NCBI GenBank assembly: GCA_035549575.1
Contig: DASZQP010000073.1
Span: forward strand, 26,644-90,643
Direction: 5' to 3'
DNA length: 64,000 bases
Source of the DNA: Rhizomicrobium sp.
GTDB taxonomy: Bacteria; Pseudomonadota; Alphaproteobacteria; Micropepsales; Micropepsaceae
The position numbers and the translations under genes were made by a program. The notes beneath the pieces are model-generated. The model did not search any database, was not told the origin of the DNA, and saw only the letters and a program-made list of their open reading frames with translations. This document shows positions 9,597-63,882 of this stretch, piece by piece (the stretch's first letter is position 1; each line of letters starts with the position of its first letter).

Positions 9597-9669
9597 GGAG
9601 CGAGCAGGGTTGCGGTGCAGGGAGCTTCTTCCTAAACAGGTTCGAACAGCAACACCACCGGAGGTTCGC

Positions 9670-27440: not shown

Positions 27441-27463
27441 GCGCGGAGGCGGAGACAAAAGGA

Positions 27464-27516
27464 AACGGGCCGGACTTTCGTCCGGCCCGTTCCGTCTCGG
27501 GGCGGAAGTCCCGCCC
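27464..27516 (-). terminator. twin hairpins between convergent pepN and the kelch-like gene
   Basis: AACGGGCCGGAC-TTTC-GTCCGGCCCGTT (12-bp stem, 27464-27491), followed on the minus strand by TTCCTTTTG. A second 6-bp hairpin, GGGCGG-AAGTC-CCGCCC, lies at 27500-27516. Confidence 0.6.
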
Positions 27517-27528: not shown

Positions 27529-29088
27529 CTAGTTCACCGTGACGGCCTTGGCCTTGGAGGCAATGCCGTTCACGACGACCTGAGCGGTGCTGGCGCCCGT
27601 CTCGCACGAATTCGGAACATCGAACTTCGTGGTGTTGGCGGAGCCGTCCGAGATACCCATCGAGTTGTGGTCGTGGGTCTTGGCATAGCAGACGTGACCG
27701 GTGGAGTTGTTGGTGATCCGGATCAGCGGATAGTTGGTCGAGGTCTGCACGTCGTCGCCGTAGTAGCCGCCGAAGGTGAGGCCGTTGAAGCCGAAGCCCT
27801 TGGCGACATTGTTGGTGCTGCCGCGGGTCAGCGTGGCCGGGATCTTCTTCAGCTTCGGGATCGCCGCCTTCACCGGCTTGCCCTTGGGCGTGTAGATCTG
27901 GACGTCACCGACGTCGGAGCTCCACAGCACTTCGCCGGTCGGCAGCACGAGCATGCGCGCTTCCCAGGACGCCTGGATGGAGGCGCTGGCCGGTTCGCTC
28001 ACCTGCTTGATGTTGACCGTGTTCGGATCCTGCACCTCGATCTCGATGAAGTGCGACGGCGGATTGAACACGCCGGGGCTCACCTGGGCCAGAATGTGGC
28101 CGTTGGGCAGCACCGCCGCGGGACCGTCGGCCGAGTCGAGCTGGCCGTTGATGTTCGGCAGGTCGGGACCCGCCGTCCAGCTGTCGGACACGTAGTTGTA
28201 GACCGCCGTGTGCGTCGTGCCGCAGAGCTGGAACATCAGCCCGTTCGGCAGCAGCGGCGCCGGTCCGATTTCATGCGAGCCCTGATCCGTGCAGGAGGCG
28301 GGCGTCTTGTTGGCGGAGGTCGTCCACTGTCCGGAGGCTTCCGAATAGATTTCGACCTGGTTCGGAACGCCGAGGCTGCGGTTGGCGTCGACGGTCACGA
28401 TGGTCTGGTTGGGCAGCTGCGTCCAGCCTTCCTCGTCGTTCACGTCGCCCTTGCCGAAGATGCCTTCGGTCCAGGTCACGCTGGTGCCGCTGATCGCCGC
28501 ATGGGCCGTGTGCGTGGTGCAGCAGTCGGCCAGATAGTAGGTCCCGTCGCTGAGCACGACGCTCTGCGCGTCGCCGATCTGCGACCAGCCGGACGGCGGG
28601 TTGACGTTGGTCCAGGTGTTGGTCGCCGGGTCGTAGATGGCACCCTTGTTCGTCCAGACGGCGTTGCAGTTCAGATACTCGCCGCCGTTCACGATGAGCT
28701 TGCCGTCGGGCAGAACCTGCGAGGCGAAATACAGCGGCGAATAGCCGGACGGCATCGCGCCGACCGTCGACCAGGTGCCGTTCTTGTAGCTGCCCGCGTT
28801 GTCCGGCGTCAGGCGGAACCAGTTCACGGTGCAGCCGTCGTGCATGAGGACGGTGCCGTCCAGCATCAGCAGCGCGGTGTCCGGGAAGCCGCTGCCCGGG
28901 AAGGCATGGGTGAGGCCGCTCCACGTGCCCGACTTGATCTTCGGCGGGGCGACATAGGGCGCCTTCGTGACCTGGCCGTTCCAATGGCGGGTGGGAAGCG
29001 GATCGATGAATTTCTGGTTCGCGAGCGCGGTGGTGCTGAGCAGTGCCGCGGTCGTCGACGCCAGGAGAACGATTCGACTGAGACGCAT
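27529..29088 (-). CDS. secreted kelch/galactose-oxidase-like beta-propeller protein with C-terminal Ig-like (E-set) domain
   Basis: Signal peptide MRLSRIVLLASTTAALLSTTALA. Repeated blades of the type DGKLIVNGGE / GAIYDPATNTWT / LSDGTYYL. C-terminal beta-sandwich-like ...ASTAQVVVNGIASKAKAVTVN. Confidence 0.68.
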   Translation of the reverse strand: MRLSRIVLLASTTAALLSTTALANQKFIDPLPTRHWNGQVTKAPYVAPPKIKSGTWSGLTHAFPGSGFPDTALLMLDGTVLMHDGCTVNWFRLTPDNAGSYKNGTWSTVGAMPSGYSPLYFASQVLPDGKLIVNGGEYLNCNAVWTNKGAIYDPATNTWTNVNPPSGWSQIGDAQSVVLSDGTYYLADCCTTHTAHAAISGTSVTWTEGIFGKGDVNDEEGWTQLPNQTIVTVDANRSLGVPNQVEIYSEASGQWTTSANKTPASCTDQGSHEIGPAPLLPNGLMFQLCGTTHTAVYNYVSDSWTAGPDLPNINGQLDSADGPAAVLPNGHILAQVSPGVFNPPSHFIEIEVQDPNTVNIKQVSEPASASIQASWEARMLVLPTGEVLWSSDVGDVQIYTPKGKPVKAAIPKLKKIPATLTRGSTNNVAKGFGFNGLTFGGYYGDDVQTSTNYPLIRITNNSTGHVCYAKTHDHNSMGISDGSANTTKFDVPNSCETGASTAQVVVNGIASKAKAVTVN

Positions 29089-29588: not shown

Positions 29589-30242
29589 TCATTTGTCGAT
29601 TCGCCGCTGCACCTTGAGCGCCTCGGCCAGTCCGGCGGTGGGCACGGGAATGGCCACCGTCTTCCCGCCGCCGGATGGCGAAAATTCGATCGTCATCTTC
29701 CTCGCGCCTTCGATCGCGGGAAGATCGGCAAACCGTACGGAATAGATGGCAAGACAGAATTGTGCCGAGCAGGCCCGCACGGGAACGGGAATCCGGGTCC
29801 CGTCCACGCGAAGCGTGACCGTATCTCCCGTCGAGGCATCCTGCGTGGGCAGCCTCAGGAAGATCCCCAGCACGCGCTTGAATCCGAACAGGCGGAAGGT
29901 CATCCGCAGGTTCTCGGACGGATTTTGCGGACTGTGCATTCCGATCCCGACCCTGCAGCGCGGAATCCTCCAGCCCGGGGGCGGTCCGGACCTCGGCCGC
30001 GCATCCTCGTGGCCTTTCAGGGCGGGTGGAGTGGGCAGCGCCTCGCCCTTGCCGCATCCCAGCCGCCACGCGCCAATCTTCACATGGCCGACGAAATCGT
30101 CTCCGATCGCGGCGGCGATCCGGGCCGGCGTGGGAGGAGGGGGCTGTCTTTGCGGTTCCTGCCGGGGGCCGGGGCGCGAGACGGCGAACAGCGCGCCGAG
30201 GAAAACCACACCCAGAACCAGGCCGATGATCGTGTTTCGCAT
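29589..30242 (-). CDS. exported IalB-like (invasion-associated locus B family) protein
   Basis: N-terminal TM/signal MRNTIIGLVLGVVFLGALFAV. Paired Cys pattern (WRLGCGKG...CRV..., ACSAQFCLAI) recalls the IalB family. Lies 48 nt downstream of the last sulfotransferase gene on the same strand. Confidence 0.5.
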   Translation of the reverse strand: MRNTIIGLVLGVVFLGALFAVSRPGPRQEPQRQPPPPTPARIAAAIGDDFVGHVKIGAWRLGCGKGEALPTPPALKGHEDARPRSGPPPGWRIPRCRVGIGMHSPQNPSENLRMTFRLFGFKRVLGIFLRLPTQDASTGDTVTLRVDGTRIPVPVRACSAQFCLAIYSVRFADLPAIEGARKMTIEFSPSGGGKTVAIPVPTAGLAEALKVQRRIDK

Positions 30243-30290
30243 GTCTCTCCATCCGGCGCGGGTCTCGACTAGCCTCTGGGCGGCCCGTAC

Positions 30291-32342
30291 TCAAGTCCCG
30301 CATGCCGGCGGCGGGAACTCCGGCACGCCGGGATAGGCGTCCAGAACCGGCCCGAGCGCGGCCTTCAGCGGATCGAGCCAGGCCTCGAAATGCCGCCAGT
30401 GGTCCACGCCGCTCCGGTAGAGCGGCATGCGCACCTGCTCCGAACTGGCGGTGCGCACCGGCCGTTCGGTTTCGTGAAAGCGCAGGCATTGCTCGTCGAA
30501 CGGCAGGCGGAGGTAGTCCAGAAGGCGGCGGATCTCTCCCTCCGGATCGGCTACGAGGCGCTCGTAGAACACGCGATGCACCTTGCCCGGAAGGATGGCG
30601 TCGTAATGCGCCATGAGCTCGACATAGTCGCTGTAGTAGCGGCCGACATCGCCCAGCGCGTAGGAGAAGTGCTGGCCGCGCGCGAAGTGCTGCTTGTAGT
30701 TGGAGAAGCACGACGCCATCGGATGCCGCCGCGCGTCGACGATGCGGGCGCGCGGCAATATCAGGTGGATGAGCGGGATGTGCGCATAGTTGTTCGGCAT
30801 CTTGTCGATGAAGAACGCGCGGCCCAGCCTCCGGTGCGGACGCGTGCTCTCGATGTACGCCCTGCCGCGGCGCTCGAACTCCTCCGCCGGCAGCTCGCCC
30901 AGGACGTAGGGATATTCCGGACCCTCCGCCGCGTTGTCGTCGTTGAGATGGCGCGCGAGGGAGGTGATGTCGGGCAGCTCCATCGTGCCTTCGATCGCCG
31001 GGTGACTCGCCAGGATCTGCTCGATCAGCGTGGAGCCGGCGCGCGGCAGTCCGACGACGAAAATCGGATCGGGCGCGTCATGGCCGAAGCCCTCGCGCTC
31101 CGCGAAGAATTCCGGGGTGAAGAATTCCTTGCACGCCTTCACGTAGGCGCTCGTGCGGGCGGCGTCGTAGTCCACCGTCGACCGCCAGAGCGCGTTGCCA
31201 CGGCGGTAGTTCTCGAACGCCTGCTCGTAGCGGCCGAGGTCTTCCTGCGCCTTCGCGAGGGAGAAGAAGAACTGAACGCGCGCCTCGACGCGCAAGTCGC
31301 CGCGCTCCAGCTGCGCCTGCATCGCGGCGATATCGGCTTCGGTGAAGCGGAAGGTCTTGAGGTTTGCGAGGCTCCAATAGGCTCCGCCCAGCTGCGGCAG
31401 GAGCGCGATCGCCTTGCGATAGGCGGCAATTCCCTCGTCCTGCATTCCCGCCGACTTGAGCGCGTGGCCGTAGCTGATCCACGACGCGGGATGCCGGGGA
31501 AACTCGCCCACCAGCTCGGCGAACAGCGCCAGCGACCGGCGGTCGTCGCCCATCTGTCCGAGCAGCGACGCCTTCATCGTGCGGAATTGCGGGTTGGCGG
31601 GATCGCGTTCGAGCAGGATGTCGATATGCGGCATTGCCTCGTGCAGCCTGTTCTGCAGGTAGAGGGTCGAGACATAGCGATAGCGCGCGGCGGCGAAGTC
31701 CGGCGCGAGTTCGAGACAGCGCTCGAGCAGCGCGGACGCATCCTCGTTGCGGTCGCAGGCGATCGCGGCTTCCGCCAGCATCTTGATCGCGTTCACGTGG
31801 TCGGGGCAGGTCTCGAGGAATTCGAGCAGAATATCTTCGGCGACGTCCGGCCGCCCGTTCCGGAGCGCCGCCACGGCCTTGAGCAGCATGGGCTCGTGCA
31901 CCGCGACGTTGAAATGATGCGAATAGGCCGCGTCGGCGGCGAGAATGTCTCCGGCGAGCACATATTGCTCGCCGAGCGCCGACCAGGCACGCGAGAAGTT
32001 CCGGTCGATTGCGACCGCTTCCGTCAGCGCGCCGATCGCGGCCTCGCCCTGGCCGAGCGCGGCATAGGTCTCGCCAAGCTCGCAGCGGACCTCCGCCCAT
32101 TCCGGGAACGCGCGCGCGAGCGGCTCCAGAACACCCTTTGCCGCGCCGGCTTCGCCTTTCGCGAGCAGGGCCGCGCCGAGCTGCAGCAAGCTGTCGGGAT
32201 CGCGGGGCGAGCGGGCGAGGCGGTCCCGCGCCAGCGCTTCTTCCCGCGCCGGATCGGAATTGACGCGCCGCTTCATCGCCTCGTAGCGGGCGCGGGGCGG
32301 CTGCGGATCGCGGTCCTGCACGGTTTCGCGGCGTTCGGACAT
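30291..32342 (-). CDS. TPR-repeat + sulfotransferase (TPST-like, Sulfotransfer_3-type) protein, paralogue 1
   Basis: N-terminal TPR array. C-terminal FVVGLPRAGSTLIEQILASHPAIEGTMEL (5'-PSB loop) and RIVDARRHPMASCFS (3'-PB region). No signal peptide. 683 aa. Confidence 0.88.
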   Translation of the reverse strand: MSERRETVQDRDPQPPRARYEAMKRRVNSDPAREEALARDRLARSPRDPDSLLQLGAALLAKGEAGAAKGVLEPLARAFPEWAEVRCELGETYAALGQGEAAIGALTEAVAIDRNFSRAWSALGEQYVLAGDILAADAAYSHHFNVAVHEPMLLKAVAALRNGRPDVAEDILLEFLETCPDHVNAIKMLAEAAIACDRNEDASALLERCLELAPDFAAARYRYVSTLYLQNRLHEAMPHIDILLERDPANPQFRTMKASLLGQMGDDRRSLALFAELVGEFPRHPASWISYGHALKSAGMQDEGIAAYRKAIALLPQLGGAYWSLANLKTFRFTEADIAAMQAQLERGDLRVEARVQFFFSLAKAQEDLGRYEQAFENYRRGNALWRSTVDYDAARTSAYVKACKEFFTPEFFAEREGFGHDAPDPIFVVGLPRAGSTLIEQILASHPAIEGTMELPDITSLARHLNDDNAAEGPEYPYVLGELPAEEFERRGRAYIESTRPHRRLGRAFFIDKMPNNYAHIPLIHLILPRARIVDARRHPMASCFSNYKQHFARGQHFSYALGDVGRYYSDYVELMAHYDAILPGKVHRVFYERLVADPEGEIRRLLDYLRLPFDEQCLRFHETERPVRTASSEQVRMPLYRSGVDHWRHFEAWLDPLKAALGPVLDAYPGVPEFPPPACGT

Positions 32343-32343
32343 C

Positions 32344-34419
32344 TCAGCCGTTCCAGCCGAACTGCACGCCGCCGTCGTTCCACTGCGCGGCGATCGCGGC
32401 CCTGACGCCGCCGTAGGATTTCGGAACGGCGGGATAGGCGTCGGCGAGACCTCCGAGCGCGTGTTTCAGGGGCGCGAGCCATGGCTCGAAATGGCGCCAG
32501 TGATGGAGCGCTCCGCTGTGGATCGGCCTTCGCACCTGCTCCGCGCTGGCGCTTCGCACGACACGGCCGTTCTCGTGGAACCGCAGGCAGCGTTCCTCCA
32601 TCGGCAGATCCAGGTGGGCGAGCATCGCGCGTATCTCGCGCTCCGGGTTCTCGACCAGCCGCTCGTAGAAGACCCGGTGGACCCGTCCGGGAAGAACCGC
32701 GTCGAAATGCGCCATGAGCGCGGCATAGTCGCGATAGTAGCGGCCGATGTCGCCGAGCCCGTAGCTGAAAGCCTGTCCCGTGCCGAAATGCTGAGCGAAA
32801 TTCGACCAGCCGCAGGCCATCGGATGGCGGCGCACGTCGATGATCCTGGCGTGGGGCAGGATGAGATGGATGAGGCCGATGTGGGCGAAATTGTCGGGCC
32901 GCTTGTCGACGAAGAACGGGCGAGCCGTCCGCCTGTGCACGCGCGCGCGGTTCAGATATTCCGCTCCCAGCGCCTCCCGCGTTGCGCGGTCGAGCCGCGC
33001 CAGCGCCTCCGGCATGTGCGCGGCCTTGTCGTCCGGCGTCCGCTTGCCGCCGAGCCGGCCTGCGAGATAGGGGATCGCGCGCAGCTCCGTTGTGCCCTCG
33101 ATCGCGCTGTGGCTCGCGAGGATCTGTTCCACCAGCGTGGAGCCCGATCGCGGAAGGCCCACGACGAACACCGGGCCGGCCTCGCCGCATCCCTCGCCCG
33201 CGCGCGCCGCGAAGAAGCCGGGCGTGAAGAGCGCCTCGGACCTGCGCAGATTCTCCGACGTCTCTTCCGCGTCGTAGGGCAGGAGCCCGCGCACGATCGC
33301 ATTGCCGCGCGCATAGTTGTCGAAGGCGTCTTCGAAGCGGCCTTCGTCCTCGAGCGCCTTGCCGAGAGCGAAGTGGAGCTGTGCGCGGTTGTCGCCCCCG
33401 ATGTCGGCACGCGCCAGCTGGACGCGCATCGCTTCGCGCTCCTCCGCGGCGAAGCGGTAGGTCTTGAGGTTGGCGAGGCCCCAATAGGCTTCGCCGAGGC
33501 CCGGAAGCAGCGCGGCTGCCTTGCAATAGGCCGCGACCGCCTCGTCGCGCCGGCCCATGGCCTTGAGCGCATGACCGTAGGAAACCCATGCGCCCGGCCG
33601 GTTGGGATTTGCCGCAAGCAGGATTTCGTATTCGGCGGCGGCTTCTGCGAAGGCGCTCATGCGGATCAGGGCTGCGGCCTTGAGACCGCGGCTGTAGGGC
33701 TCGTCCGGCTCGCGCGCGAGAAGGGCGTCGATCTGCGCGATGGCCTCCTCGGGCCGGTTCAGCGACATCAGCACCGTCGCGTGGCGAAAGCGCGCGGCGG
33801 CGAAGTCCGGGGCAAGCTCGGCGCAGCGCCGGAACAGCGCCTCCGCCCGGTCAGGCCGGCGCGCGCGGGCCTCGACCTCGCCGAGCAGCTTCAGCGCGTT
33901 CACGTCTGAAGGGTCGTTTCCGAGCCGGTCGAGCAGATGTCCCCGCGCCTCGTCGAGGCGGTTCGCGCGCAGCGCGGTCAGTGCCTCGCGCAGCGCCGCA
34001 TCCTCGACCGTGGCGTAGAATGCATTCGCATAGGCCGCGTCCGCGCCCTTTCGGGACTGCATCCTGGTCATCTGGTCGCCGAGCGCATTCCAGGCTGCGG
34101 CGAAACCGGGATCGAGATCGACCGCCGCGCGCAGCGCCCGCGCCGCCTGCCGGTTCTCCCCGCATTCGCCCAGGACCAGGCCGAGCTCGTAATGCGCCTG
34201 CGGAAGCTGGGGCTGGGCCCCGACGAGGCCTTCGAGCACGCTGCGCGCGGATGCCAGGGCGTTTTGCTTCCGCAGCGCCGCCGCCAGCAGCAGCAGCGCG
34301 CCGGCGTCGGCCGGAGACTCCCTGAGGATTTCGCGCGCATGCGCTTCCGCCGCCCTGGGATCGGTTGCAAGCAGGCGCCGCAGCTCGGCGGCCTCCGGGC
34401 CGTGCCGGTCCCTGATCAC
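32344..34419 (-). CDS. TPR-repeat + sulfotransferase protein, paralogue 2
   Basis: FVVGLPRSGSTLVEQILASHSAIEGTTEL and RIIDVRRHPMACGWS. GTG 34419 overlaps the stop of paralogue 3 (GTGA). Its stop lies 1 nt before the ATG of paralogue 1. Track extension 34420..34812 rejected. Confidence 0.85.
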   Translation of the reverse strand: MIRDRHGPEAAELRRLLATDPRAAEAHAREILRESPADAGALLLLAAALRKQNALASARSVLEGLVGAQPQLPQAHYELGLVLGECGENRQAARALRAAVDLDPGFAAAWNALGDQMTRMQSRKGADAAYANAFYATVEDAALREALTALRANRLDEARGHLLDRLGNDPSDVNALKLLGEVEARARRPDRAEALFRRCAELAPDFAAARFRHATVLMSLNRPEEAIAQIDALLAREPDEPYSRGLKAAALIRMSAFAEAAAEYEILLAANPNRPGAWVSYGHALKAMGRRDEAVAAYCKAAALLPGLGEAYWGLANLKTYRFAAEEREAMRVQLARADIGGDNRAQLHFALGKALEDEGRFEDAFDNYARGNAIVRGLLPYDAEETSENLRRSEALFTPGFFAARAGEGCGEAGPVFVVGLPRSGSTLVEQILASHSAIEGTTELRAIPYLAGRLGGKRTPDDKAAHMPEALARLDRATREALGAEYLNRARVHRRTARPFFVDKRPDNFAHIGLIHLILPHARIIDVRRHPMACGWSNFAQHFGTGQAFSYGLGDIGRYYRDYAALMAHFDAVLPGRVHRVFYERLVENPEREIRAMLAHLDLPMEERCLRFHENGRVVRSASAEQVRRPIHSGALHHWRHFEPWLAPLKHALGGLADAYPAVPKSYGGVRAAIAAQWNDGGVQFGWNG

Positions 34420-36068
34420 GGCGGCACGGGATAGCCGGAAAGCGCGGGGCCGAGCGCGGCGCGCAGCGGCTCGAGCCATTCCTCGTAGGCGCGCCAGCTT
34501 TCGAGAGCGTCGCGGAAGATCGGCATGCGCACCTGCTCCGAACTCGCGGTTCGCACGGGACGGGCATTCTCGTGAAAGCGCAGCGCGGCCTCCTCGAACC
34601 CGAGGCCGAGGTAGTCGAACAGCCTGCGGATTTCCGTTTCGGGGTCGGCGACGAGCCGCTCGTAGAAGACGCGATGCACCTTGCCCGGCAGAACCTCGTC
34701 GAAATGCGACATCAGCTCGACATAGTCCGCATAATAGCGCCCCAGGTCCGCGAGGCTGTAGGAAAAATCCTTTCCGAGCGGGAAGTAGTGGCGGAAATTG
34801 GACAGGCAGCACGCCATCGGGTGGCGCCGCACGTCCACGATCTTCGCATTCGGCAGCATCAGGTGGATCAGTCCGATATGCGCGAAATTGTCGGGCATCT
34901 TGTCGATGAAGTGCCTGCGGCCCAGAACGCGGAACACGCGCGCGCGCTCGAGATATTCCTCGGCGAGCGCGGCGAAATCCGCGCTGCCGAGATTGCGCAG
35001 GATTTCCGGATAGGGCGCCTGGGTGTCGGTGCGCAGCGCCCGATTGGTCTGGCCGGGAATGAAGCGCATGGAACCGCCGGCGCCCATCCGGCCCACGAGA
35101 TAGGGCAGGATGCGCAGCTCCATCGTGCCTTCGATCTGCGAATGGCTGGCGAGGATCTGTTCGACCAGCGTGGAGCCGGAACGCGGCAGGCCCACGACGA
35201 AGACCGGATCCGATGCCTGCGAACCCGACCCGCGCGCGGCCGCCAGGAAGCCGGGCGTGAACAGGGTCCGGCAGTTCAGGACATAGGCCGATGTCAGCTC
35301 CGCATTGTAGCTCAGCGTCGCGCGCTTGAGCGCATTGGCCTCGCTGTAGTGCTCGAACGCCGCCGCGCGATCGCCTTCGTCGCCGAGCGCCTTTGCGAGC
35401 GCGAACCGGATCTGGATCCGGCTCTCGACCGGAAGCTCGCCGGCCGCGAGCAGCGCGCGCATCCGCGCGATCTCCTCGCCGGAGAAGCGGAAGGTCTGCA
35501 GGCTGGCGAGGCTCCAGTACGGGTCGCCCAGGCGCGGGAAGAGCTCCATCGCCTTCCGGTAGGCGGCGACACAGGCCTCGTGCCGGTCGAGGATGCGAAG
35601 CGTGTTGGCATAGGAAAGCCAGGGCCCGGGGTGACGCGGTCCGGATGCCAGCACGATCTCGTATTCCGCCGCGGCGCGGTCGTGCTGGCCGATCCAGACA
35701 TGCGCCATGGCCTTGAGATTGCGATGGGCGGGATTGCCGGGTTCGAGGCCGAGCAGGGCGTCGATCTCCGCGAAGGCCTCGCCGGGTCTGTTCTGCGTGA
35801 GCAGCGCCGTCACGAGGTTGTGGCGCGCGGGCGCGAAATCGGGCGCCAGGGCGACCACGCGGCCGAGCAGCTCCCGCGCGTCGTCCACGCGATCCTGGTG
35901 GAGCAGCGCCTCGGCGAGGAGCGTCATCGCCGCGGGGTGTCCCTCGTTCTCCTCGAGGAAGCGGCGCAGGACAGATTCCGCCGCCTGCGGACGGCGCTGT
36001 CCGAGGGCTTCGATCGCCTTCCTGAGCTGCGGATCGTCGAGACTCCGCCCGGGGTCCAGCGGCCGCAC
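34416..36068 (-). CDS. TPR-repeat + sulfotransferase protein, paralogue 3
   Basis: FVVGLPRSGSTLVEQILASHSQIEGTMEL and KIVDVRRHPMACCLS. Start taken at GTG 36068, 4 nt after the stop of the upstream secreted-protein gene. The track start at 36164 would overlap that gene by 92 nt. Confidence 0.83.
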   Translation of the reverse strand: MRPLDPGRSLDDPQLRKAIEALGQRRPQAAESVLRRFLEENEGHPAAMTLLAEALLHQDRVDDARELLGRVVALAPDFAPARHNLVTALLTQNRPGEAFAEIDALLGLEPGNPAHRNLKAMAHVWIGQHDRAAAEYEIVLASGPRHPGPWLSYANTLRILDRHEACVAAYRKAMELFPRLGDPYWSLASLQTFRFSGEEIARMRALLAAGELPVESRIQIRFALAKALGDEGDRAAAFEHYSEANALKRATLSYNAELTSAYVLNCRTLFTPGFLAAARGSGSQASDPVFVVGLPRSGSTLVEQILASHSQIEGTMELRILPYLVGRMGAGGSMRFIPGQTNRALRTDTQAPYPEILRNLGSADFAALAEEYLERARVFRVLGRRHFIDKMPDNFAHIGLIHLMLPNAKIVDVRRHPMACCLSNFRHYFPLGKDFSYSLADLGRYYADYVELMSHFDEVLPGKVHRVFYERLVADPETEIRRLFDYLGLGFEEAALRFHENARPVRTASSEQVRMPIFRDALESWRAYEEWLEPLRAALGPALSGYPVPP

Positions 36069-36072
36069 GCCG

Positions 36073-36630
36073 TTATTCGTAGACGACGTAGTCGTTCTGA
36101 TAGTGGCCAAGATAGGCGGGCGTGAAGGTGTAGAGATAGGTCTGGACGGCGTGGGTGCCCGCACCGATTTCCATATTGGTCTGGTTCGTCCGGTTGGCGA
36201 AATGGCCGATGGCGTCGATCGAGCCGGAGAAGTAGCAGGACCCGTTGGTGAAATAGCCGTCGACGATCGGGCATATCCCGACCTGGCTGTAGGAATAGTA
36301 CGAGAAGAGCTGCGCGACGTGGTTGGTCACGATCGTGCAGGTCTTGTCGCAGACAAATCCGTGCGGCGGATCGAGCCGGACGTAGCCGGGCGGAATCGCG
36401 GAGGTGGAGGCGGCCCAGGTCTCGATCAGGAATTTCTGCTTCAGCTTCCCGGAGCGCGCGGCGTGCGGCTGCTGGGCCTTCGAGAGGCGGAAGGGCGCCT
36501 TGGCGAAATTCGCGCTGCCGGCGGGCTTGGCCGCGGGCGGGGCGTGCTTCTTGCCGAGCGGCGCCGCGTGTCCGGCGACCGCGAATGCCAGGCTCACCGC
36601 CGTCGTCAGAAGGAGATGGGTCTTGCTCAC
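36073..36630 (-). CDS. secreted 4-Cys, Tyr-rich small protein, tandem paralogue B (unknown family)
   Basis: GTG 36630 is preceded by GAGGAG at 8 nt. Signal peptide VSKTHLLLTTAVSLAFAVAGHA. Conserved C-x3-C...GICP...GSC. C-terminus QTYLYTFTPAYLGHYQNDYVVYE. Confidence 0.75.
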   Translation of the reverse strand: MSKTHLLLTTAVSLAFAVAGHAAPLGKKHAPPAAKPAGSANFAKAPFRLSKAQQPHAARSGKLKQKFLIETWAASTSAIPPGYVRLDPPHGFVCDKTCTIVTNHVAQLFSYYSYSQVGICPIVDGYFTNGSCYFSGSIDAIGHFANRTNQTNMEIGAGTHAVQTYLYTFTPAYLGHYQNDYVVYE

Positions 36631-36653
36631 GCGAAATCTCCTCTCAGGGCCGC

Positions 36654-37205
36654 TCACTCATAAACGTGGTAGTCGTTCTGGTAGTGGCCGAGATAGGCGG
36701 GCGCGAAGGTGTAGAGGTAGGTCTGCACCGTATGCTGTCCGGGTCCGACCGAGAGATTGGTCTGGTTCGTCCGGTTGGCGAAGAGATCGTCGAAGGAAAG
36801 CGTGCCGGAGAAGTTGCACGAGCCGTTGGTCGCGTATCCGTCCACCACCGGGCAAATGCCGACCTGGTTGTACGAGTAGTAGGACAGCAGCTCGGCGGTG
36901 TTGTTCGTGACGATGGTGCAGGCCTTCTTGCACTTGAAGGATTGCGGCGTGTCGAGCGGCACCGTCCCGCCGGGAACCGCGACCGTCGTGGCCGCCCAGG
37001 TTTCGACGAGGAACTTCTCCTTCAGCGCCGTGGCGCTCGGCGTGCTGCTCCGGGGCGCCTTGAAGGGCGTCTTCGCAAAATCGGCATGGGACTGCGGCTT
37101 GGAGCCGGCCGGAGCGTGCCGTTTTCCCAGCGCGATCGCCGAAGGGCCGCTGACCGCAAAGGCCAGGCCGACAGCCGTGGAAAGAAGAAGACCCGCCTTG
37201 CCCAT
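36654..37205 (-). CDS. secreted 4-Cys, Tyr-rich small protein, tandem paralogue A (unknown family)
   Basis: ATG 37205 (or GTG 37214) gives the signal peptide MGKAGLLLSTAVGLAFAVSGPSAIA. About 70% identical by eye to paralogue B over the mature roughly 120-residue domain. C-terminus QTYLYTFAPAYLGHYQNDYHVYE. Confidence 0.75.
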   Translation of the reverse strand: MGKAGLLLSTAVGLAFAVSGPSAIALGKRHAPAGSKPQSHADFAKTPFKAPRSSTPSATALKEKFLVETWAATTVAVPGGTVPLDTPQSFKCKKACTIVTNNTAELLSYYSYNQVGICPVVDGYATNGSCNFSGTLSFDDLFANRTNQTNLSVGPGQHTVQTYLYTFAPAYLGHYQNDYHVYE

Positions 37206-37488
37206 TGCCTTCACCCCTTGCTCGCGAGCCTTGCGAAGCCCGGCGCGGCAAGACGCTACCGGCTCCTCAATCTGAGATCAATCCTCACTCGCACAAACTT
37301 TGCGTGCCGGCGGCATCGCGCGAGCCCGCGCGGCTGCGGTACGACTGACGAAAATTTAATTCCCTCCGCGGCGCGTTTCGGGGCGGCGTCGAAATGCGAG
37401 CAAGGATTGCACGGCGCGCAATGTGCGAGCCCCGCCGCGCGCGCGGGCGGTTGGAAAAGTCCGGGTGCGGCGGAAATTCGCTTCGGTA

Positions 37489-37502
37489 TTAAGCGGACTT
37501 AA
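37489..37502. promoter_or_regulatory. palindrome TTAAG-CGGA-CTTAA in an AT-rich patch of the divergent intergenic region
   Basis: Seen in the 424-bp region between the secreted-protein/sulfotransferase operon and gspE. Its function is unknown. Confidence 0.25.
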
Positions 37503-37638
37503 TATATTCCTTCCGTAATCTGCGTCGTAGATCGGGTGCCGGGGCGGGACGTTGCTCCGTCGCGATCCCTTCGCTCGGTCGTGGCAATTTGGAATGTCGC
37601 GACATAGGCTAGAGGCGCAGGCACGCCAAAGAACAGAC

Positions 37639-39300
37639 ATGACGGTGATGAAGCTAGAGCAGCTTGTCCTGGACAGGGGACTGGTTGCGCCGGAAACCCT
37701 GACACGCGCCCGGCTGGTACAAGCCGAAACGGGCGAGCGTCTGGATTCCGTTCTCACCCGGCTTGGAATGATCGCCGAACAGGCGCTGGCCAATGCCATC
37801 GCCGAGGAAACCGGCCTCGCCATCGTCTCGCCGACGGATTACCCCCCCGAGCCCGTTCTGGGCGACGCCGTGTCGGTCCGCTTCCTCCGGGACGTGAAGG
37901 CGGTGCCGCTGGCGGCGACCGACAGCGGCGTTGACGTCGCGCTCATCGATCCGCTCGATCCCTATCCGGTCGAGGCGCTCGGCTTCGCCCTGAAGCGTGA
38001 CATCCGGCCCTTCGTGGCCAAGGCCAACGATCTGGAAGCCGCGCTGGACCGTCTCTACGGCGCGGCGGCCGAAATGCAGGCCGATTCCGACACTGTCGAC
38101 GAATCCGACGTCGAGCGCCTCAAGGACCTGGCGAGCGACGCGCCGGTCGTGCGCACGGTGAACAATCTCATCGCCCGCGCCTCGGAATCGCGTGCTTCCG
38201 ACATCCATATCGAGCCGGCCGAGGACTGCGTGCGCGTGCGCTACCGCATCGACGGCGCGCTGGTCGATGTCGAGACCCTTCCGGCGCAGATGAAGCTCCC
38301 GCTCGTTTCCCGCATCAAGGTCATGGCCTCGCTCGACATCGCCGAGCGGCGCCTGCCGCAGGACGGCCGCCTGCGCGTCGCCGTGCGCGGGCACGAAATC
38401 GACCTTCGCATCGCGACCTCGCCCACCATCCACGGCGAAAGCGTCGTCATGCGCATACTCGACCGCTCGTCGCTGTCGCTCGATTTCAAGGCGCTCGGCT
38501 TCGCCGACGACGTGCTCGAAAAATTCCTGCACGTGCTCAAGCAGCCGCACGGCATCGTCCTGGTGACCGGCCCGACCGGCAGCGGCAAGACCACCACGCT
38601 CTATGCCTCGCTGACCGCGATCAACTCGCCGGACCGCAAGATCCTCACCATCGAGGATCCCATCGAGTACCGCCTCGCGGGCATCAACCAGACCCAGGTG
38701 AAGCCGCAGATCGGGCTGACCTTCGCCGCGGCTCTGCGCTCGTTCCTGCGCCAGGACCCCGACGTGATGATGGTCGGCGAAATCCGCGATCTGGAGACGG
38801 CGGAGGTCGCCATCCAGTCGGCGCTGACGGGCCACACCATCCTCTCGACGCTCCACACCAACAGCGCGGCGGCCTCGGTCACCCGCCTCATCGACATGCG
38901 CGTGGAGCCGTTCCTCATCACCTCGACCCTGAACGCGGTGCTGGCGCAGCGTCTGGTGCGCAGGCTCTGTCCCAGGTGCCGCGAACCGCACGAGCCGGCG
39001 CCGGGGTTCCTGGAAAGTCTCCTGCCGGGAGTGGACGTCGGCTGGGTCAAGACGCTCTACCGGCCCAAGGGCTGCGCCGAATGCGGCAACACCGGATTCC
39101 GCGGCCGCCTCGCGGTGATGGAACTGCTGCTCGTGGACGACGAGATCGCCGGTCTCATCCTGTCGCGGGCCGAGGCGCGGGAAGTCCAGCGTTCGGCGGT
39201 CGCCCACGGCATGCGCACCATGCTGGCCGACGGACTGATGAAGTCCGAGCAGGGGCTGACCACCATCGAGGAAGTCCTCCGCGCGACACGGGAAGTTTGA
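37639..39300 (+). CDS. gspE: type II secretion ATPase GspE
   Basis: Walker A GPTGSGKTT, Asp/His boxes and the tetracysteine CPRC...CAEC. Start at ATG 37639 (MTVMKLEQLVLDRGLV). Confidence 0.93.
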   Translation: MTVMKLEQLVLDRGLVAPETLTRARLVQAETGERLDSVLTRLGMIAEQALANAIAEETGLAIVSPTDYPPEPVLGDAVSVRFLRDVKAVPLAATDSGVDVALIDPLDPYPVEALGFALKRDIRPFVAKANDLEAALDRLYGAAAEMQADSDTVDESDVERLKDLASDAPVVRTVNNLIARASESRASDIHIEPAEDCVRVRYRIDGALVDVETLPAQMKLPLVSRIKVMASLDIAERRLPQDGRLRVAVRGHEIDLRIATSPTIHGESVVMRILDRSSLSLDFKALGFADDVLEKFLHVLKQPHGIVLVTGPTGSGKTTTLYASLTAINSPDRKILTIEDPIEYRLAGINQTQVKPQIGLTFAAALRSFLRQDPDVMMVGEIRDLETAEVAIQSALTGHTILSTLHTNSAAASVTRLIDMRVEPFLITSTLNAVLAQRLVRRLCPRCREPHEPAPGFLESLLPGVDVGWVKTLYRPKGCAECGNTGFRGRLAVMELLLVDDEIAGLILSRAEAREVQRSAVAHGMRTMLADGLMKSEQGLTTIEEVLRATREV

Positions 39301-40517
39301 TGGCCACCTACAAGTATCGCGCGGCGACACCGGCAGGGCAGTTGCGGACGGGGGTCCTCGAGGGCGCCTCGCGCACGGACGCCATCGAGCGCGTCAAGCG
39401 CCTCGGCCTGATGCCGATCGAGACGGTGGAAACGACGGCGAAGGGCAAGAGCGAGGCGCCCCGGCTCCGGCTCAGCACGCCCACGCGCCGCGGCATCGTC
39501 AATGCGGTCGGCGAGCTTGCGGTGCTGCTGAATGCGGGCCTTGCCCTCGACCGCGCGCTCGCGGTGTGCGTCGAGAACATCACAAGGCCGCCGGTCAAGG
39601 CGGTGTTCGCGAAGCTGCGCGACCGCGTGCGCCACGGCGCCTCGCTGGCGCGCGCGATGCAGGAAAGCGACGGCGCGTTCTCGCCCATGGCCTCGGCGAT
39701 GGCGGAGGCGGGCGAGGCGAGCGGCAAGCTGGACGAAAGCCTGGGAAGGCTCGCCGAGACGATGGAGCGCGCCGAGACGCTGCGCCAGACGATCGTCTCG
39801 TCCATGGTCTATCCCGCGATGCTCATCGTCATCGCGACGAGCGTCATCCTGGTCATGCTTCTCTTCGTCGTTCCGCAGTTCGAGGATCTGTTCTCGGACA
39901 CGGGGGCGAAACTCCCGTTCATGACCGAGGTGGTGATCGGCGCGAGCCACGCGGTGAAGAACTACGGGATCGTCGGCGCCCTGCTCGCCGCGGTCGGCGT
40001 CTACATGCTCGTGCGATGGGTGCGGCAGCCCGCGGTGAAACGCGTTGTGGACCGCCAGCTGCTCAACGCGCCGGTTTTCGGCGCCGTGATCCGCAATGCG
40101 GAAACCGCGCGCTTCGCCCGCACCCTGGGCAGCCTTCTCGACGGCGGCGTGCCGCTCGCCTCCGCGCTGCACATCGCGCAGCGCTCGATCGCGAACATGC
40201 ACATGTCGGAAGCGGTCGACAAGGTATCGTCGGGCCTTCGCCAGGGCGGCGGCCTGTCGCGGCCGCTGGCCGCGACCGGGCTTTTCCCGCCGATGGCGCT
40301 GAGCTTCCTGCGCACCGGCGAGGAGACCGCGCAGCTCGGACTCATGCTCGGCCGCCTCGCCGACGTGCTCGACCGGGAGGTGCGCAATTCGATACAACGC
40401 GTGATCGCGGTGCTCACGCCCGCAATCACCGTGATCATGGGGGCGATCGTCGCCGGCGTCATCGCCTCCATCATGTCTGCAATTCTGGGCTTCAACGATT
40501 TGGCGGTAGGACCATGA
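39300..40517 (+). CDS. gspF: type II secretion inner-membrane platform protein GspF
   Basis: MATYKYRAATPAGQLRTGVLEG... duplicated GspF domain architecture, 405 aa. The ATG overlaps the gspE stop (TGATG). Confidence 0.92.
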   Translation: MATYKYRAATPAGQLRTGVLEGASRTDAIERVKRLGLMPIETVETTAKGKSEAPRLRLSTPTRRGIVNAVGELAVLLNAGLALDRALAVCVENITRPPVKAVFAKLRDRVRHGASLARAMQESDGAFSPMASAMAEAGEASGKLDESLGRLAETMERAETLRQTIVSSMVYPAMLIVIATSVILVMLLFVVPQFEDLFSDTGAKLPFMTEVVIGASHAVKNYGIVGALLAAVGVYMLVRWVRQPAVKRVVDRQLLNAPVFGAVIRNAETARFARTLGSLLDGGVPLASALHIAQRSIANMHMSEAVDKVSSGLRQGGGLSRPLAATGLFPPMALSFLRTGEETAQLGLMLGRLADVLDREVRNSIQRVIAVLTPAITVIMGAIVAGVIASIMSAILGFNDLAVGP

Positions 40518-40945
40518 TCAGAGACAAAATTCGCCGCGGCGAAAGCGGCTTCACCCTCCTCGAGCTCCTCGTCGTTCTGGCGATCATGGGCATGCTGGCC
40601 GCGATCATCGCGCCCCAGGTGATCAAGTATCTCGGCACGTCGCGCACCCAGACGGCGAAGGTGCAGATCCAGAACGTGATGTCGGCGCTGGAACTGTTCC
40701 GGCTCGACGTCGGCCGCTATCCGACCGGCCAGGAAGGTCTGCAGGCGCTGGTCACGCAGCCGCAGACGGCGCCCAACTGGAACGGTCCGTATCTGAAGAA
40801 GGACAGCGCGCTCAGGGATCCCTGGGGCGCGCCGTACATCTACCAGATTCCGGGCCAGCACGGCGAAGTGGATGTCTTCACGCTCGGACAGGACAAGCAG
40901 CCGGGGGGGACCGGCGAGGCACAGGATGTCGGAAGCTGGCAATAG
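40514..40945 (+). CDS. gspG: major pseudopilin GspG
   Basis: Prepilin leader MIRDKIRRGESG/FTLLELLVVLAIMG with Glu at +5. DPWGAPYIY motif. ATGA overlap with gspF. Confidence 0.93.
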   Translation: MIRDKIRRGESGFTLLELLVVLAIMGMLAAIIAPQVIKYLGTSRTQTAKVQIQNVMSALELFRLDVGRYPTGQEGLQALVTQPQTAPNWNGPYLKKDSALRDPWGAPYIYQIPGQHGEVDVFTLGQDKQPGGTGEAQDVGSWQ

Positions 40946-41342
40946 CGTACCCGGCTTCACTCTGCTCGAGACCCTGGTCGTCGTCGCGATCATGGCGCTG
41001 ATCGGCGCCATCGTCGCGCCCAACCTCGCAAGCGCGCTCGACACGCTGTCGCTGCAGCAGACCGCGCGGCTGCTCCAGGCGGATCTGCGCGTCTTGCGCG
41101 GCACCGCGCTGAGGACGGGCCGCAGCGTGGACCTGAACGCGTCGAACGGAGGGCGCGAATACGACTGGATCGGCGGCACGCGCTATCTGCCGCCGGCCGT
41201 GCGGATGAGCATGGCAAGGCCGATCGTCGCCTATCCCGACGGGTCGGTGCAGACGACGCCGATCACCGTGAGCACCGCGCACCGCCGGTTCGTTCTGACG
41301 GTCGATCCGATCAACGGCGCGGTCGTGGTGAGCAGCCAATGA
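40926..41342 (+). CDS. gspH: minor pseudopilin, GspH-like
   Basis: MSEAGNSVPG/FTLLETLVVVAIMALIG. GAGG lies 6 nt upstream of ATG 40926. Overlaps the gspG 3' end by 20 nt. Confidence 0.72.
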   Translation: MSEAGNSVPGFTLLETLVVVAIMALIGAIVAPNLASALDTLSLQQTARLLQADLRVLRGTALRTGRSVDLNASNGGREYDWIGGTRYLPPAVRMSMARPIVAYPDGSVQTTPITVSTAHRRFVLTVDPINGAVVVSSQ

Positions 41343-41719
41343 CGGCGAGGCGGGGCGAAAGGGGCACGGCACTCGTCGAGGCGATGATCGGCGCGGCGAT
41401 CGTCGCCATCACGCTGGCGGCGATGTACGGCGCGATCACCCAGAGCGCCGCGGGCAACCGCATGGCGGAGGACCGCCGCATGGCGATGATGATCGCCAGG
41501 TCCCAGCTGGCCGCGGTGGGCTCGATCATCCCTTCGGTCCCCGGCCTCACCGAGGGCACCAACGGCGATTTCTACTGGCGCGTGGACATAGAGCCCTACG
41601 CGGGCGGACCGGCGCCCGGCAGCGCCGGCGTGCTTTGCACCGTGACGGTGACCGTCGCCGACCAGCATCGCAGGCCGCTTGCCAATCTGGTTTCCCTCAC
41701 GCTCGCGCGGGGGACCTAG
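41339..41719 (+). CDS. gspI: minor pseudopilin, GspI-like
   Basis: MTARRGERG/TALVEAMIGAAIV with Glu at +5. 126 aa. ATGA overlap with gspH. Confidence 0.72.
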   Translation: MTARRGERGTALVEAMIGAAIVAITLAAMYGAITQSAAGNRMAEDRRMAMMIARSQLAAVGSIIPSVPGLTEGTNGDFYWRVDIEPYAGGPAPGSAGVLCTVTVTVADQHRRPLANLVSLTLARGT

Positions 41720-41721
41720 CC

Positions 41722-42369
41722 GTGAGCGCGCACAACGCCGGCTACACGCTCGTCGAGCTGCTCGTCAGCCTGATCATCATCGGTCTCACCAGTGCGATGA
41801 TGTTCTCCGGCATCGTCGCCGGCCGCCGCGTGTGGGAGCATGGCGATGCCGCCAACGTCGCGGGGGAATCCGTGTCGGGGGCGCAGATGCTGCTGCGCGG
41901 GCGGATGGAGCGCATATTCCCCGCGACGCGCTTCGACAAGATCCCGACCTATGCCGATTTCTCCGGCAACGCGAGCAGCGTCACATTTCTGTCGCCCCCG
42001 CGCGACATCCATGCGCCGTCCGGCCTCGTGCGCTACACGCTGACGCTGGCCCCGAACGGCGATCTCGTGCTTCTGACGCTCAGCGATCTCGCGATCGATC
42101 CGAAGGCGCCCGGGAACCCGCTCGTGCTGTTGCACAATGTGCAGCAAATCGATATCGGCTATTTCGGCGTGCTTCCGCCCGACCCCGTCGCGGCATGGCA
42201 CGACCAGTGGCAGGGCAGGGCGACTTTACCTTTGTTAATTCGCGTCCGCGTACAATTTCCGCCCGACGACATCCGCGCGTGGCCGGATCTGCTGGTCAAA
42301 CCCTATGCAATGGTCGACTCCATGTGCGTGCTCACCGTCATGACCGGAAAGTGCCGGGGCCGGCAATGA
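41722..42369 (+). CDS. gspJ: minor pseudopilin, GspJ-like
   Basis: GTG 41722 gives VSAHNAG/YTLVELLVSLIIIG with Glu at +5. About 215 aa. Confidence 0.68.
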   Translation: MSAHNAGYTLVELLVSLIIIGLTSAMMFSGIVAGRRVWEHGDAANVAGESVSGAQMLLRGRMERIFPATRFDKIPTYADFSGNASSVTFLSPPRDIHAPSGLVRYTLTLAPNGDLVLLTLSDLAIDPKAPGNPLVLLHNVQQIDIGYFGVLPPDPVAAWHDQWQGRATLPLLIRVRVQFPPDDIRAWPDLLVKPYAMVDSMCVLTVMTGKCRGRQ

Positions 42370-43403: not shown

Positions 43404-43957
43404 GAACGCTGCAGCCCCGCGAACGGCAGCTCGTCGCGATCGGCATCCTGATCGTGGCCCTGATCGTGGCCTGGTTCGGCCTGATCGATCCGGTCCTCGG
43501 CGGATTCATCGCGCGGGCGGAGGAGCGCAGCCAGCTCATGGAGACCTACGCCCGCAACGAGCGGGTGCTCGCCGGGATTTCGGTCTGGCGCGCCGAGGCG
43601 GACCGGCAGAAGATGACGGAATCGCAATATGCCATCGTCGCGCCGACGAAGGTGCTGGCGACGGAAAATCTCAAGCAGCGCCTGACCAAGCTCGCTTCCT
43701 CGGTGGGCGGCAGCGTGCAGACCATGGCGGAGCTTCCCGCCGAGGCGCCGGACGGCTGGGTCAGGGTGCGCGCCGACATGCAGCTTACAATGAGTCAACT
43801 TTACAAGAGCCTGTCACGGCTTGAGAATGAGGCACCTTATGTCGTTGTTGGATACGTTTCGGTCGTTGCCGACCGTGCAGTTCAAACCGGACATCTTGCG
43901 ACAATGGATGTCCGGATTGAAGTCTCGGCTCCCGTCCGAACTAATCAGCCGTCGTAA
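43400..43957 (+). CDS. gspM: GspM-like assembly protein
   Basis: ATGA overlap with gspL. N-terminal TM (LVAIGILIVALIVAWFGL). 185 aa. Assignment rests mainly on position and topology. Confidence 0.62.
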   Translation: MRTLQPRERQLVAIGILIVALIVAWFGLIDPVLGGFIARAEERSQLMETYARNERVLAGISVWRAEADRQKMTESQYAIVAPTKVLATENLKQRLTKLASSVGGSVQTMAELPAEAPDGWVRVRADMQLTMSQLYKSLSRLENEAPYVVVGYVSVVADRAVQTGHLATMDVRIEVSAPVRTNQPS

Positions 43958-44507: not shown

Positions 44508-44513
44508 GGGGCC

Positions 44514-48173: not shown

Positions 48174-48366
48174 CGGTTCGGGAACCCTCGCGCCCTTGAC
48201 GGCGCACCCGCGCACGCCCGCATGTTTTCCACCCGGACGGGATGTTGCGCTCCCCGAGGCGATTTTTCACTTACCTCATACGCTATTTGGTGTCATTCTC
48301 AATTGCGAACGGAATGCGGACCGGTCGCGGACATCGGCGCGCGCAAGGGGATGAGGGGAGTCTGAC

Positions 48367-50076: not shown

Positions 50077-50207
50077 TCCCGCGTTCCACGGCGGAGGCGG
50101 CATCGCGTTCCGCGCCGTGCCGGCGTATTCGCAACCAATTGTTGTGGTTTCGTTAATGAGCGCGCCGCTACTGTCGGGCCGTGTTCCGGCGCGATGGGAC
50201 GGCGCCC

Positions 50208-63771: not shown

Positions 63772-63882
63772 GGCAGGCAGCCCCTTTTGGATGTCGAGCC
63801 GGAGCCGTGAGACTGCAAGCGCGGGGCGCGGGGATGCGCTCGCGATCAGCGCGCGGTGCCGGAATACCGGGAAAAACGTCTG

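Follow-up and report, generated by a model that had tools for sequence, protein, structure and literature searches.

The 64,000-nucleotide stretch of Rhizomicrobium sp., a soil alphaproteobacterium, analysed here (contig DASZQP010000073.1, positions 26,644 to 90,643 of the forward strand; hereafter the window) contains a block of six tightly packed minus-strand genes at 29589-37205. They encode two small secreted proteins (small1 and small2), three proteins that combine tetratricopeptide repeats (TPR) with a sulfotransferase domain (ST1, ST2 and ST3) and an IalB-like protein, and the block lies divergent from the genes of a type II secretion system (T2SS) (Table 1). All six genes have high third-position GC, as in real genes. 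From small1 to the IalB-like gene the intergenic gaps are 23, 4, -4, 1 and 48 nt, identical to those given in the original prediction, which had described six packed genes on one strand. A terminator scan found no terminator-like sites inside the block (terminators were not enriched overall), and together with the short gaps this indicates co-transcription. For small1, the gene itself was correctly predicted but its start probably was not: GTG 37214 would add 3 aa and give a protein of 186 aa, and ATG 37205 is preferred because the aligned homologues begin with MSKT or MNKT. The last gene had been called IalB-like, which agrees with an above-threshold Pfam match of its product to PF06776 (IalB; 31.7 bits, cut-off 22.1, residues 136-210) and with the name IalB that its homologues carry in their sources. 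The gene belongs to the conserved cassette, yet its product evolves fast, with 32-47% identity. For this reason a homologue search with the protein found just 8 close relatives; it brought no new gene contexts.

Table 1. Features of the six-gene block and its surroundings (positions in the window).
Feature	Position	Strand	Description
small1	36654..37205	-	ATG 37205; 183 aa; secreted
small2	36073..36630	-	GTG 36630, GGAG ribosome-binding site upstream; 185 aa; tandem paralogue of small1 with the same architecture
ST1	34416..36068	-	GTG 36068; 550-aa TPR-sulfotransferase with short N-terminus
ST2	32344..34419	-	GTG 34419; 691-aa TPR-sulfotransferase; start overlaps ST1 stop by 4 nt
ST3	30291..32342	-	ATG 32342; 683-aa TPR-sulfotransferase
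IalB-like	29589..30242	-	ATG 30242; 217 aa; N-terminal membrane anchor or signal sequence, Pro-rich linker, PF06776 domain
Divergent intergenic region small1/gspE	37206..37638	.	433 nt, or 424 nt with the GTG 37214 start of small1
Promoter-like TTGATC-N17-TAGCGT	~37281-37252	-	TTGATC-N17-TAG(G/C)(T/G)T across orthologues
Conserved block ATTAAATTTTCGTCAG	37360-37345	-	Alignment of 8 regions
Direct repeat TTAA-N6-TTAA(C)	37502-37489	-	Alignment of 8 regions
gspE-proximal block CTAGCCTATG...GCCACGACC	37612-37577	-	Alignment of 8 regions
T2SS operon gspE, F, G, H, I, J, L, M, N(C-like), D, K	37639..47482	+	Pfam labels of orthologous loci
Prepilin peptidase	47526..48215	-	GspO/PilD-like, Peptidase_A24
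Kelch-repeat protein	27529..29088	-	Secreted, 519 aa; downstream of the cassette after a 500-nt gap
Strong terminator	27493..27462	-	14-bp stem, after the Kelch gene; only strong one in the region

The two small proteins share 64% identity and one layout, in which a signal peptide is followed by a basic linker of ~37 aa and a 120-aa domain with four conserved cysteines. Inspection of both N-termini showed a K-containing n-region, a hydrophobic core and an AxA-type cleavage site, in agreement with the Sec signals originally assigned to the first two genes. The linker has a pI of 10.6-12 (10.6 in small1), contains 7-9 Lys/Arg and no Tyr and is predicted to be disordered. The AlphaFold2 model of small1 has a pLDDT of ~90 over residues 61-183 and forms a 10-strand beta sandwich. 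Foldseek matched the 120-aa domain to TNF/C1q-like jelly rolls with a probability of 1.0, a TMt (TM-score normalised to the target) of ~0.6 and ~10% identity, among them BC2L-C-Nt (2wq4), PLTL (9ib7), EclA, the C-terminal domain of Pgp3, BclA and C1q. At this identity a similarity to the binding sites of TNF-like lectins is undetectable. The N-terminal lectin of BC2L-C, Photorhabdus PLTL, the Chlamydia Pgp3 domain and BclA are all secreted or surface proteins and resemble the small proteins in their predicted fold; the small proteins differ from the TNF/C1q-like group by this low identity, by the added basic linker and by two predicted disulfides. No Pfam or NCBIfam model matched either small protein. 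When 1.8 billion representative proteins were searched with a profile, 269 related clusters were obtained, nearly all of 160-210 aa, so that the small secreted proteins make up a family not described before. A cluster of N-x-[ST] triplets was seen in one strand of the domain (NRTNQTN, small1 residues 144-150). Variants occur in most sulfotransferase-linked lineages (NRT/NQT, NDT/NIT, NLT/NDT/NIS, NRT/NIT and NAT); the unlinked paralogues mostly lack them. The cluster might serve as a structural ladder of Asn and Thr, or it might be modified.

Each of ST1, ST2 and ST3 consists of a TPR array and a Sulfotransfer_3 domain (PF13469), which was matched in Pfam with E-values of 1e-46 to 5e-49 and 160-168 bits against a cut-off of 27. 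This profile search, suggested with the original prediction, bears out the three TPR-sulfotransferases of ~550-690 aa that had been called there. The loop GLPR[AS]GSTL[IV]EQILASH..IEGT.EL is present in all three. When the catalytic domain of ST1 was compared with PDB sequences, the CurM sulfotransferase and human TPST2 and TPST1 were the best matches (~1e-9), with identities to the tyrosylprotein sulfotransferases (TPSTs) of 20-26%. In the alignment, GLPRSGSTL corresponds to GVPRSGTTL of TPST2 and RRHP...S to RDGRASVHS, which contains the 3'-phosphate-binding Arg and Ser. The 5'-phosphosulfate-binding loop and the 3'-phosphate-binding Arg/Ser are invariant across 26 family members. R78 of TPST2 aligns with a conserved residue, E99 with the second E of EGTxEL (EGTMEL in ST1) and K158 with the K of DKxP. 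S285 falls on or beside a Ser of the motif (A)SSEQV, which reads ASAEQV in ST2, and a gap in the alignment keeps this last match approximate. These are catalytic residues of TPST2, with E99 as the base and K158 and S285 as its partners. The residues aligned with them are conserved in family members inside and outside the cassette; R101 of TPST2 is kept in ST1 and ST2 and not in ST3 or in the receptor-linked clade described below.

A family profile, run against the PDB, ranked TPSTs above all other sulfotransferases among the 60 matches listed (E 2e-13 to 3e-12) and matched the TPR domain of OGT at 4e-41. The AlphaFold2 model of ST1 (pLDDT 86.7, pTM 0.85) is one compact protein in which 16 helices precede a Rossmann-like domain. 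For the catalytic domain, Foldseek placed TPST2, TPST1 and tick TPST in the lead (TMt 0.62-0.74, ~285 columns) and the OLS and CurM sulfotransferases and Stf9 below them; for the N-terminal half, consensus TPR, OGT and SPINDLY were matched. The likeness of the loop to that of TPSTs, first proposed with reference to the human enzymes, is thus confirmed by PDB alignment, profile ranking and predicted structure. Sequence and predicted fold support the assignment of ST1-ST3 to the sulfotransferases of the 3'-phosphoadenosine-5'-phosphosulfate (PAPS) type, with TPSTs as nearest solved relatives.

Compared with human TPST1 and TPST2 (3AP1, 5WRI) and tick TPST (8W5Z), the best matches in sequence and structure, the window enzymes share the loop GxPRSG[ST]T, the aligned Glu, Lys and Ser, the 3'-phosphate-binding Arg/Ser and the Pfam family. 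They differ in having no membrane anchor or luminal location and in carrying an N-terminal TPR array of 250-400 aa, which TPSTs lack. No N-terminal hydrophobic segment was found by inspection in ST1-ST3, as the predicted absence of signal peptides had implied, and without such a segment or a membrane anchor the enzymes appear to be cytoplasmic. The sulfotransferase domains of CurM and OLS (4GBM, 4GOX; E ~1e-9) have a similar PRSGST loop and Glu base and act on a protein-tethered substrate, bound to acyl carrier protein (ACP). They are, however, embedded in polyketide synthase modules, a context missing from the window, and their structural match is below that of the TPSTs. OGT and SPINDLY resemble the window enzymes in the fusion of an N-terminal TPR superhelix to a C-terminal transferase, which is a glycosyltransferase in their case and a sulfotransferase here. 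A bacterial TPR-guided transferase, FlmG, modifies the exported protein flagellin while it is still in the cytoplasm. For the catalytic and the TPR domain alike, the closest relatives act on proteins.

In a neighbour-joining tree, each of ST1, ST2, ST3 and a fourth paralogue has an old clade of its own, and these clades have been retained together, which argues that the paralogues are not redundant. ST3 is the most conserved (71-76% identity to its orthologues in the close clade), and in most lineages the gene directly after that of the small protein belongs to the clade of ST1 orthologues. Two proteins from Rhizomicrobium or metagenomes (P0138, 1141 aa; P0140, 1082 aa) have TPR and sulfotransferase domains at about twice the normal length and may be fused tandem sulfotransferases or merged gene calls.

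The arrangement of these genes was followed across lineages. Only 10 loci with relatives of the small proteins were found in 185,579 species genomes. Seven have the T2SS-small protein-sulfotransferase cassette, followed in 6 of 7 by an IalB-like gene (at L013, no match was seen beyond the second sulfotransferase), and three have a distant paralogue (39-43% identity) whose context is unrelated and which sometimes shares a genome with a cassette copy (DASZQV01, JAJPHG01). At L003-L005, whose gene contexts were read, this unlinked paralogue (L003-L005, L014-L016) is flanked by an AsnC-type regulator gene on one side and a DUF3574 gene on the other, with recA and genes for flagellar export nearby. 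In the close-clade loci (n=10, of which L001 and L002 share an identical small protein), the order is divergent GspE, small protein, sulfotransferases and IalB-like protein, and gene order in this clade is collinear all the way from the T2SS to an M1 peptidase. Such collinearity proves little on its own, because vertical inheritance could give it.

More informative is a diverged lineage (L021/L022), in which GspE is 74% and the small protein 42-44% identical to those of the window. Here a divergent GspE is followed by a small protein, four sulfotransferases and an IalB-like protein, and the downstream genes are different. Beyond the cassette in these two loci (L021:14576-19887, L022:10858-16383) lie genes for a cysteine-synthase-like PALP protein, a rhodanese, an acetyltransferase and a Cys/Met-metabolism enzyme dependent on pyridoxal phosphate; these sulfur-related genes could be a coincidence or a link to sulfur supply. 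In all three remote lineages that were looked up, with small-protein identities of 26-35%, the small protein is encoded beside a TPR-sulfotransferase and the order is rearranged: small protein and ST1-like gene at L103, IalB-like gene, small protein and ST1-like gene at L104/L105, and sulfotransferase, small protein and gspE/F/G on one strand at L106. The co-occurrence of the small proteins with TPR-sulfotransferases and the gsp cluster, on which the original prediction had made its interpretation depend, is therefore seen in 12 loci of the close clade and the diverged lineage and in three rearranged remote lineages. A linkage that survives rearrangement at 26-35% identity indicates a functional module, and a functional link among the small protein, the sulfotransferases, the IalB-like protein and the T2SS is well supported.

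The TPR-sulfotransferase family extends far beyond this module. It is very large (7991 of 8000 candidate clusters scored reach E<=1e-10) and bears only a generic name, 'tetratricopeptide repeat-containing sulfotransferase family protein', which covers at least 8000 sequence clusters. Literature searches on it returned nothing, and these results bear out the earlier statement that such enzymes are widespread and have no assigned substrate. Caulobacter, Arenimonas and Steroidobacter have full-length relatives (~55% identity) and lack the small protein. Since the enzyme family is so much broader than that of the small proteins, the latter cannot be its family-wide substrate.

Elsewhere in this family a sulfotransferase gene is directly followed by a same-strand gene for an orthologous TonB-dependent receptor (TBDR) of ~800 aa. 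This was the case in 4 of 4 genome look-ups and overall in 73 of 84 survey loci (L017-L020 and L023-L102, e.g., L017:10001-14557), the exceptions being mostly truncated contigs. The two genes are ~50-250 nt apart, without a third conserved gene, and their hosts include the cultured Arenimonas oryziterrae and Caulobacter sp. KR2-114. At the start of a long loop, 41 of 46 linked receptors have an acidic Tyr cluster, [DE]Y.DY...YD, with the consensus DY[STNAV]DY[STAG]xx[YF]D (DYxDYxxxYD), which none of the six unlinked receptors in the same loci contains. The motif could not be placed on a solved TBDR, as the nearest ones, FyuA and Cir, align in the plug and the last strands only, and in NCBIfam the linked receptors matched only generic siderophore-receptor models, far below cut-offs. 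A 9-mer enrichment upstream of 68 pairs gave a TTGACA-like word only and no shared operator, and literature searches found nothing on the pairing. At L064:1-11176, where the usual receptor is absent, three TPR-sulfotransferase genes flank two Oar-type TBDRs (CarboxypepD_reg and Plug domains, ~1025 aa), so the association reaches a second class of receptor. In both contexts, a sulfotransferase gene stands beside the gene of a Sec-exported beta-rich protein, which fits client-specific modification before export; the receptor pairing indirectly favours exported proteins as clients.

We propose as the best explanation that the block is one functional module of three non-redundant cytoplasmic sulfotransferases, TNF/C1q-like small proteins, an IalB-like periplasmic protein and a T2SS. 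As to its function, we tentatively put first, at somewhat less than even likelihood, that the sulfotransferases sulfate the co-encoded small proteins in the cytoplasm before export by Sec and the T2SS. The TPR domain would dock the unfolded precursor in the cytoplasm, and the catalytic domain would move sulfate from PAPS to hydroxyls of the precursor, with Tyr as first candidate and Y179 as the best conserved one. The precursor would then be exported by Sec and would fold and form its disulfides in the periplasm, and the T2SS would release or display it. The analysis itself establishes the class and domain architecture of the enzymes, the conservation of the residues aligned with the TPST2 catalytic residues, the operon structure, the predicted fold of the small proteins and a gene linkage that is kept across rearrangements. 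Which molecule is the acceptor, which residue is modified, docking by the TPR domain and dependence on the T2SS are inferred. Cytoplasmic modifiers encoded beside the Sec-exported proteins that they modify are known from aah-aidA, tibC-tibA and hmw1C and provide a precedent for this mechanism, and the protein-directed nearest relatives of both enzyme domains also count in its favour.

The action of RaxST on the RaxX peptide in Xanthomonas is the only bacterial tyrosine-sulfation system that we found described in the literature (PMC6637879); a few other peptide sulfotransferases act in secondary metabolism. The RaxST/RaxX-RaxAB system also places the gene of a cytoplasmic PAPS-dependent sulfotransferase beside those of a small secreted protein and an export system (PMC6637879), and the best-conserved Tyr of the window's small proteins lies in a D-Y dipeptide, as in RaxX. 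In contrast to the small proteins, with their Sec signals and neighbouring T2SS, RaxX is a 60-residue precursor that has a double-glycine leader and is exported by a peptidase-containing type I system. The small proteins also differ from RaxX, to which they have no homology, by a folded 120-aa domain with predicted disulfides, and the window enzymes differ from RaxST by their TPR domains and their three to four paralogues. A RaxST structure was absent from both PDB searches with these enzymes (sequence and fold), and no direct comparison with RaxST was made.

Several observations weigh against sulfation of the small proteins, and most of them concern their tyrosines. The 120-aa domain contains 10-12 Tyr (8-10%), compared with 0.5-4% in neighbouring proteins, so that the two proteins are Tyr-rich as originally predicted. 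However, most of these residues lie in or beside predicted beta-strands of the jelly roll. The unlinked paralogues retain SYYSY, DGY, YLY, PAY and DYHVY. The sulfotransferase-linked proteins of L021/L022 have GASTY, DGT and NQYSQIK in place of SYYSY, DGY and the acidic C-terminal context, and P0243 has lost YLY. Only Y179, in the C-terminal QNDY motif, is nearly invariant across the superfamily, and P0236, which by sequence closely resembles the linked L021/L022 proteins, has W at this position; among the small proteins linked to sulfotransferases, not one Tyr is kept without exception. The sites known to be sulfated by TPSTs and RaxST lie in acidic, unstructured segments. In the small proteins, two acidic residues within 5 positions are found only around Y179 and Y182 (QNDYHVYE), the other Tyr having none or one, and the disordered linker is basic and free of Tyr. 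Because Tyr residues are kept in unlinked paralogues and partly lost in linked lineages, the Tyr-richness is a feature of the fold and makes a weak argument for sulfation. What does track the linkage is an N-x-T-rich strand of the TN[QD]TN type and, in closer lineages, a motif [VI][ND]FAKxPFK within the disordered linker, which one might speculate to be a docking site. Three to four enzymes for one or two small substrates would also be unusual, no PAPS-synthesis gene was found in the window, and the relatives all come from metagenomes or metagenome-assembled genomes labelled Rhizomicrobium (Micropepsales) or unclassified Alphaproteobacteria. That the small proteins may be the substrates is suggested by gene context and enzyme class, and we hold it as tentatively as the reading it belongs to. 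Of the original interpretation, the enzyme class, the likeness to TPSTs, the TPR architecture and the module stand, while the argument from Tyr is weak.

The enzymes might instead modify a non-protein acceptor (lipopolysaccharide, exopolysaccharide, glucan or lipid), with the small proteins as lectin-like binders of the sulfated polymer; the linkage would then be functional, and the small proteins would be partners of the product rather than substrates. We consider this rather unlikely, although the Tyr pattern, which does not track the linkage, speaks for it. Bacterial TNF-like lectins (BC2L-C-Nt 2wq4, PLTL 9ib7 and EclA) are among the matches to the small-protein fold, and a jelly roll with a basic linker (pI 10.6-12, and basic by eye in other aligned lineages too) would, after its release through the T2SS, bind a polyanion. 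The lectin match is, however, one at the level of the jelly roll (~10% identity), in which C1q, Pgp3 and viral capsid proteins score equally. A weak NCBIfam similarity to the Nod-factor sulfotransferase NoeE was seen, far below cut-off. Among solved structures, TPSTs and the ACP-directed CurM and OLS match the catalytic domain better in sequence and fold than any carbohydrate sulfotransferase (mycobacterial Stf9 being just below in fold), and the TPR part resembles the protein-binding TPR domains of OGT and SPINDLY. A cyclic beta-1,2-glucan synthase-like gene lies ~18 kb away, but the conserved block is without a glycosyltransferase, polysaccharide-export or lipid gene in any lineage examined. 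The two-gene pairing of the sister clade with TBDRs would also be hard to explain by glycan sulfation.

The enzymes might also act on protein clients encoded elsewhere, such as TBDRs or other T2SS cargo or components; the small proteins and the IalB-like protein would then not be acceptors but cargo under shared regulation, or accessory factors. The sister clade is paired with receptors bearing the conserved DY.DY..YD cluster, Rhizomicrobium also has a separate sulfotransferase-TBDR pair (L020), at L023 a cassette-type sulfotransferase and IalB-like pair directly adjoins such a pair, and clients elsewhere would suit a block with more enzymes than co-encoded candidate substrates. The cassette enzymes, however, fall in clades apart from the TBDR-linked clade in the neighbour-joining tree, no DY.DY-type motif was found in the proteins of the window, and the adjacency to the small-protein gene, which persists through rearrangements, points to that protein, so that we regard clients elsewhere as distinctly improbable. 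Finally, the gene order could simply be inherited, with sulfotransferases, small proteins and T2SS independent of each other, as the collinearity of the close clade by vertical inheritance would allow. The core block is kept where its flanks differ (L021/L022) and in three remote lineages with another order and orientation, and in the window its gaps are -4 to 48 nt without an internal terminator, which makes a coincidental linkage very improbable. We therefore rank sulfation of the small proteins first, followed by a non-protein polymer, other exported clients and coincidental linkage, and leave the remaining probability to other acceptors or roles.

The T2SS on the other side of the divergent region is complete, with ATPase E, platform proteins F, L and M, a C-like protein, major and minor pseudopilins, secretin D and a prepilin peptidase. 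A complete T2SS across a shared control region had been predicted, and this holds, except that the region measures 424 bp only with the GTG start of small1 and 433 nt otherwise. The possibility that the small protein is a standard T2SS component was rejected, as every core Gsp protein is separately accounted for. The conserved blocks in Table 1 come from an alignment of 8 orthologous gspE/small1 intergenic regions and are read on the minus strand. The TTGATC-N17-TAGCGT block may be a promoter; a consensus promoter scan of the divergent region gave no site above threshold. The TTAA repeat was considered as a CtrA box and rejected, since its spacing is N6 and CtrA boxes have N7. Downstream of the cassette, the Kelch gene is kept in the close clade and absent from the diverged lineage L021/L022. 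The Kelch-repeat protein and the M1 peptidase were both rejected as module members because they are absent from this lineage, and the Kelch-repeat protein may be an independent T2SS cargo.

The other genes of the window are housekeeping or unrelated genes (tRNA synthetases, NAD synthase, a resistance-nodulation-division pump, a GH3 enzyme, glucokinase, the M1 peptidase and a multicopper oxidase), and an Rfam scan of the whole window found no RNA families. Just past the prepilin peptidase gene, at 48367-51353 (+), are the genes of the 569-aa multicopper oxidase and of a 390-aa pentapeptide-repeat protein. The cyclic-glucan-synthase-like open reading frame at 55066-63921 (-), ~18 kb from the cassette, encodes 2951 aa and combines a glucoamylase-like domain with the supersandwich and catalytic domains of GH94 (Cgs/NdvB type); the original prediction had named cyclic glucan as an alternative acceptor. 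An ABC exporter is encoded at 9636-11642, 25 kb from the cassette, and at the left window edge (123-1559, +) a radical SAM/SPASM-domain protein, ~28 kb away, has no evident connection with it.

No description of this module of TPR-sulfotransferases and a co-encoded secreted partner was found in the literature searched. By uniting enzymes, candidate substrates and export machinery, it is a compact, testable candidate for the sulfation of folded secreted bacterial proteins, and it provides a first concrete hypothesis for the very large, generically named TPR-sulfotransferase family. In its widest form, which at present seems doubtful, this hypothesis would hold that TPR-fused TPST-like enzymes are a widespread proteobacterial family of dedicated cytoplasmic protein-tyrosine sulfotransferases, each modifying a Sec-exported protein encoded next to it. 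Their clients would then be TNF-like T2SS cargo in Rhizomicrobium-like Micropepsales and, far more widely and at the DYxDYxxxYD loop, a TBDR subfamily in Caulobacter, Arenimonas, Steroidobacter and soil metagenomes, an extension to which we give the same low confidence. The window's own clade is known from metagenomes only, and it is the cultured hosts of the sulfotransferase-TBDR pair that make the idea testable. If true, tyrosine sulfation would be a common and overlooked modification of bacterial envelope proteins.

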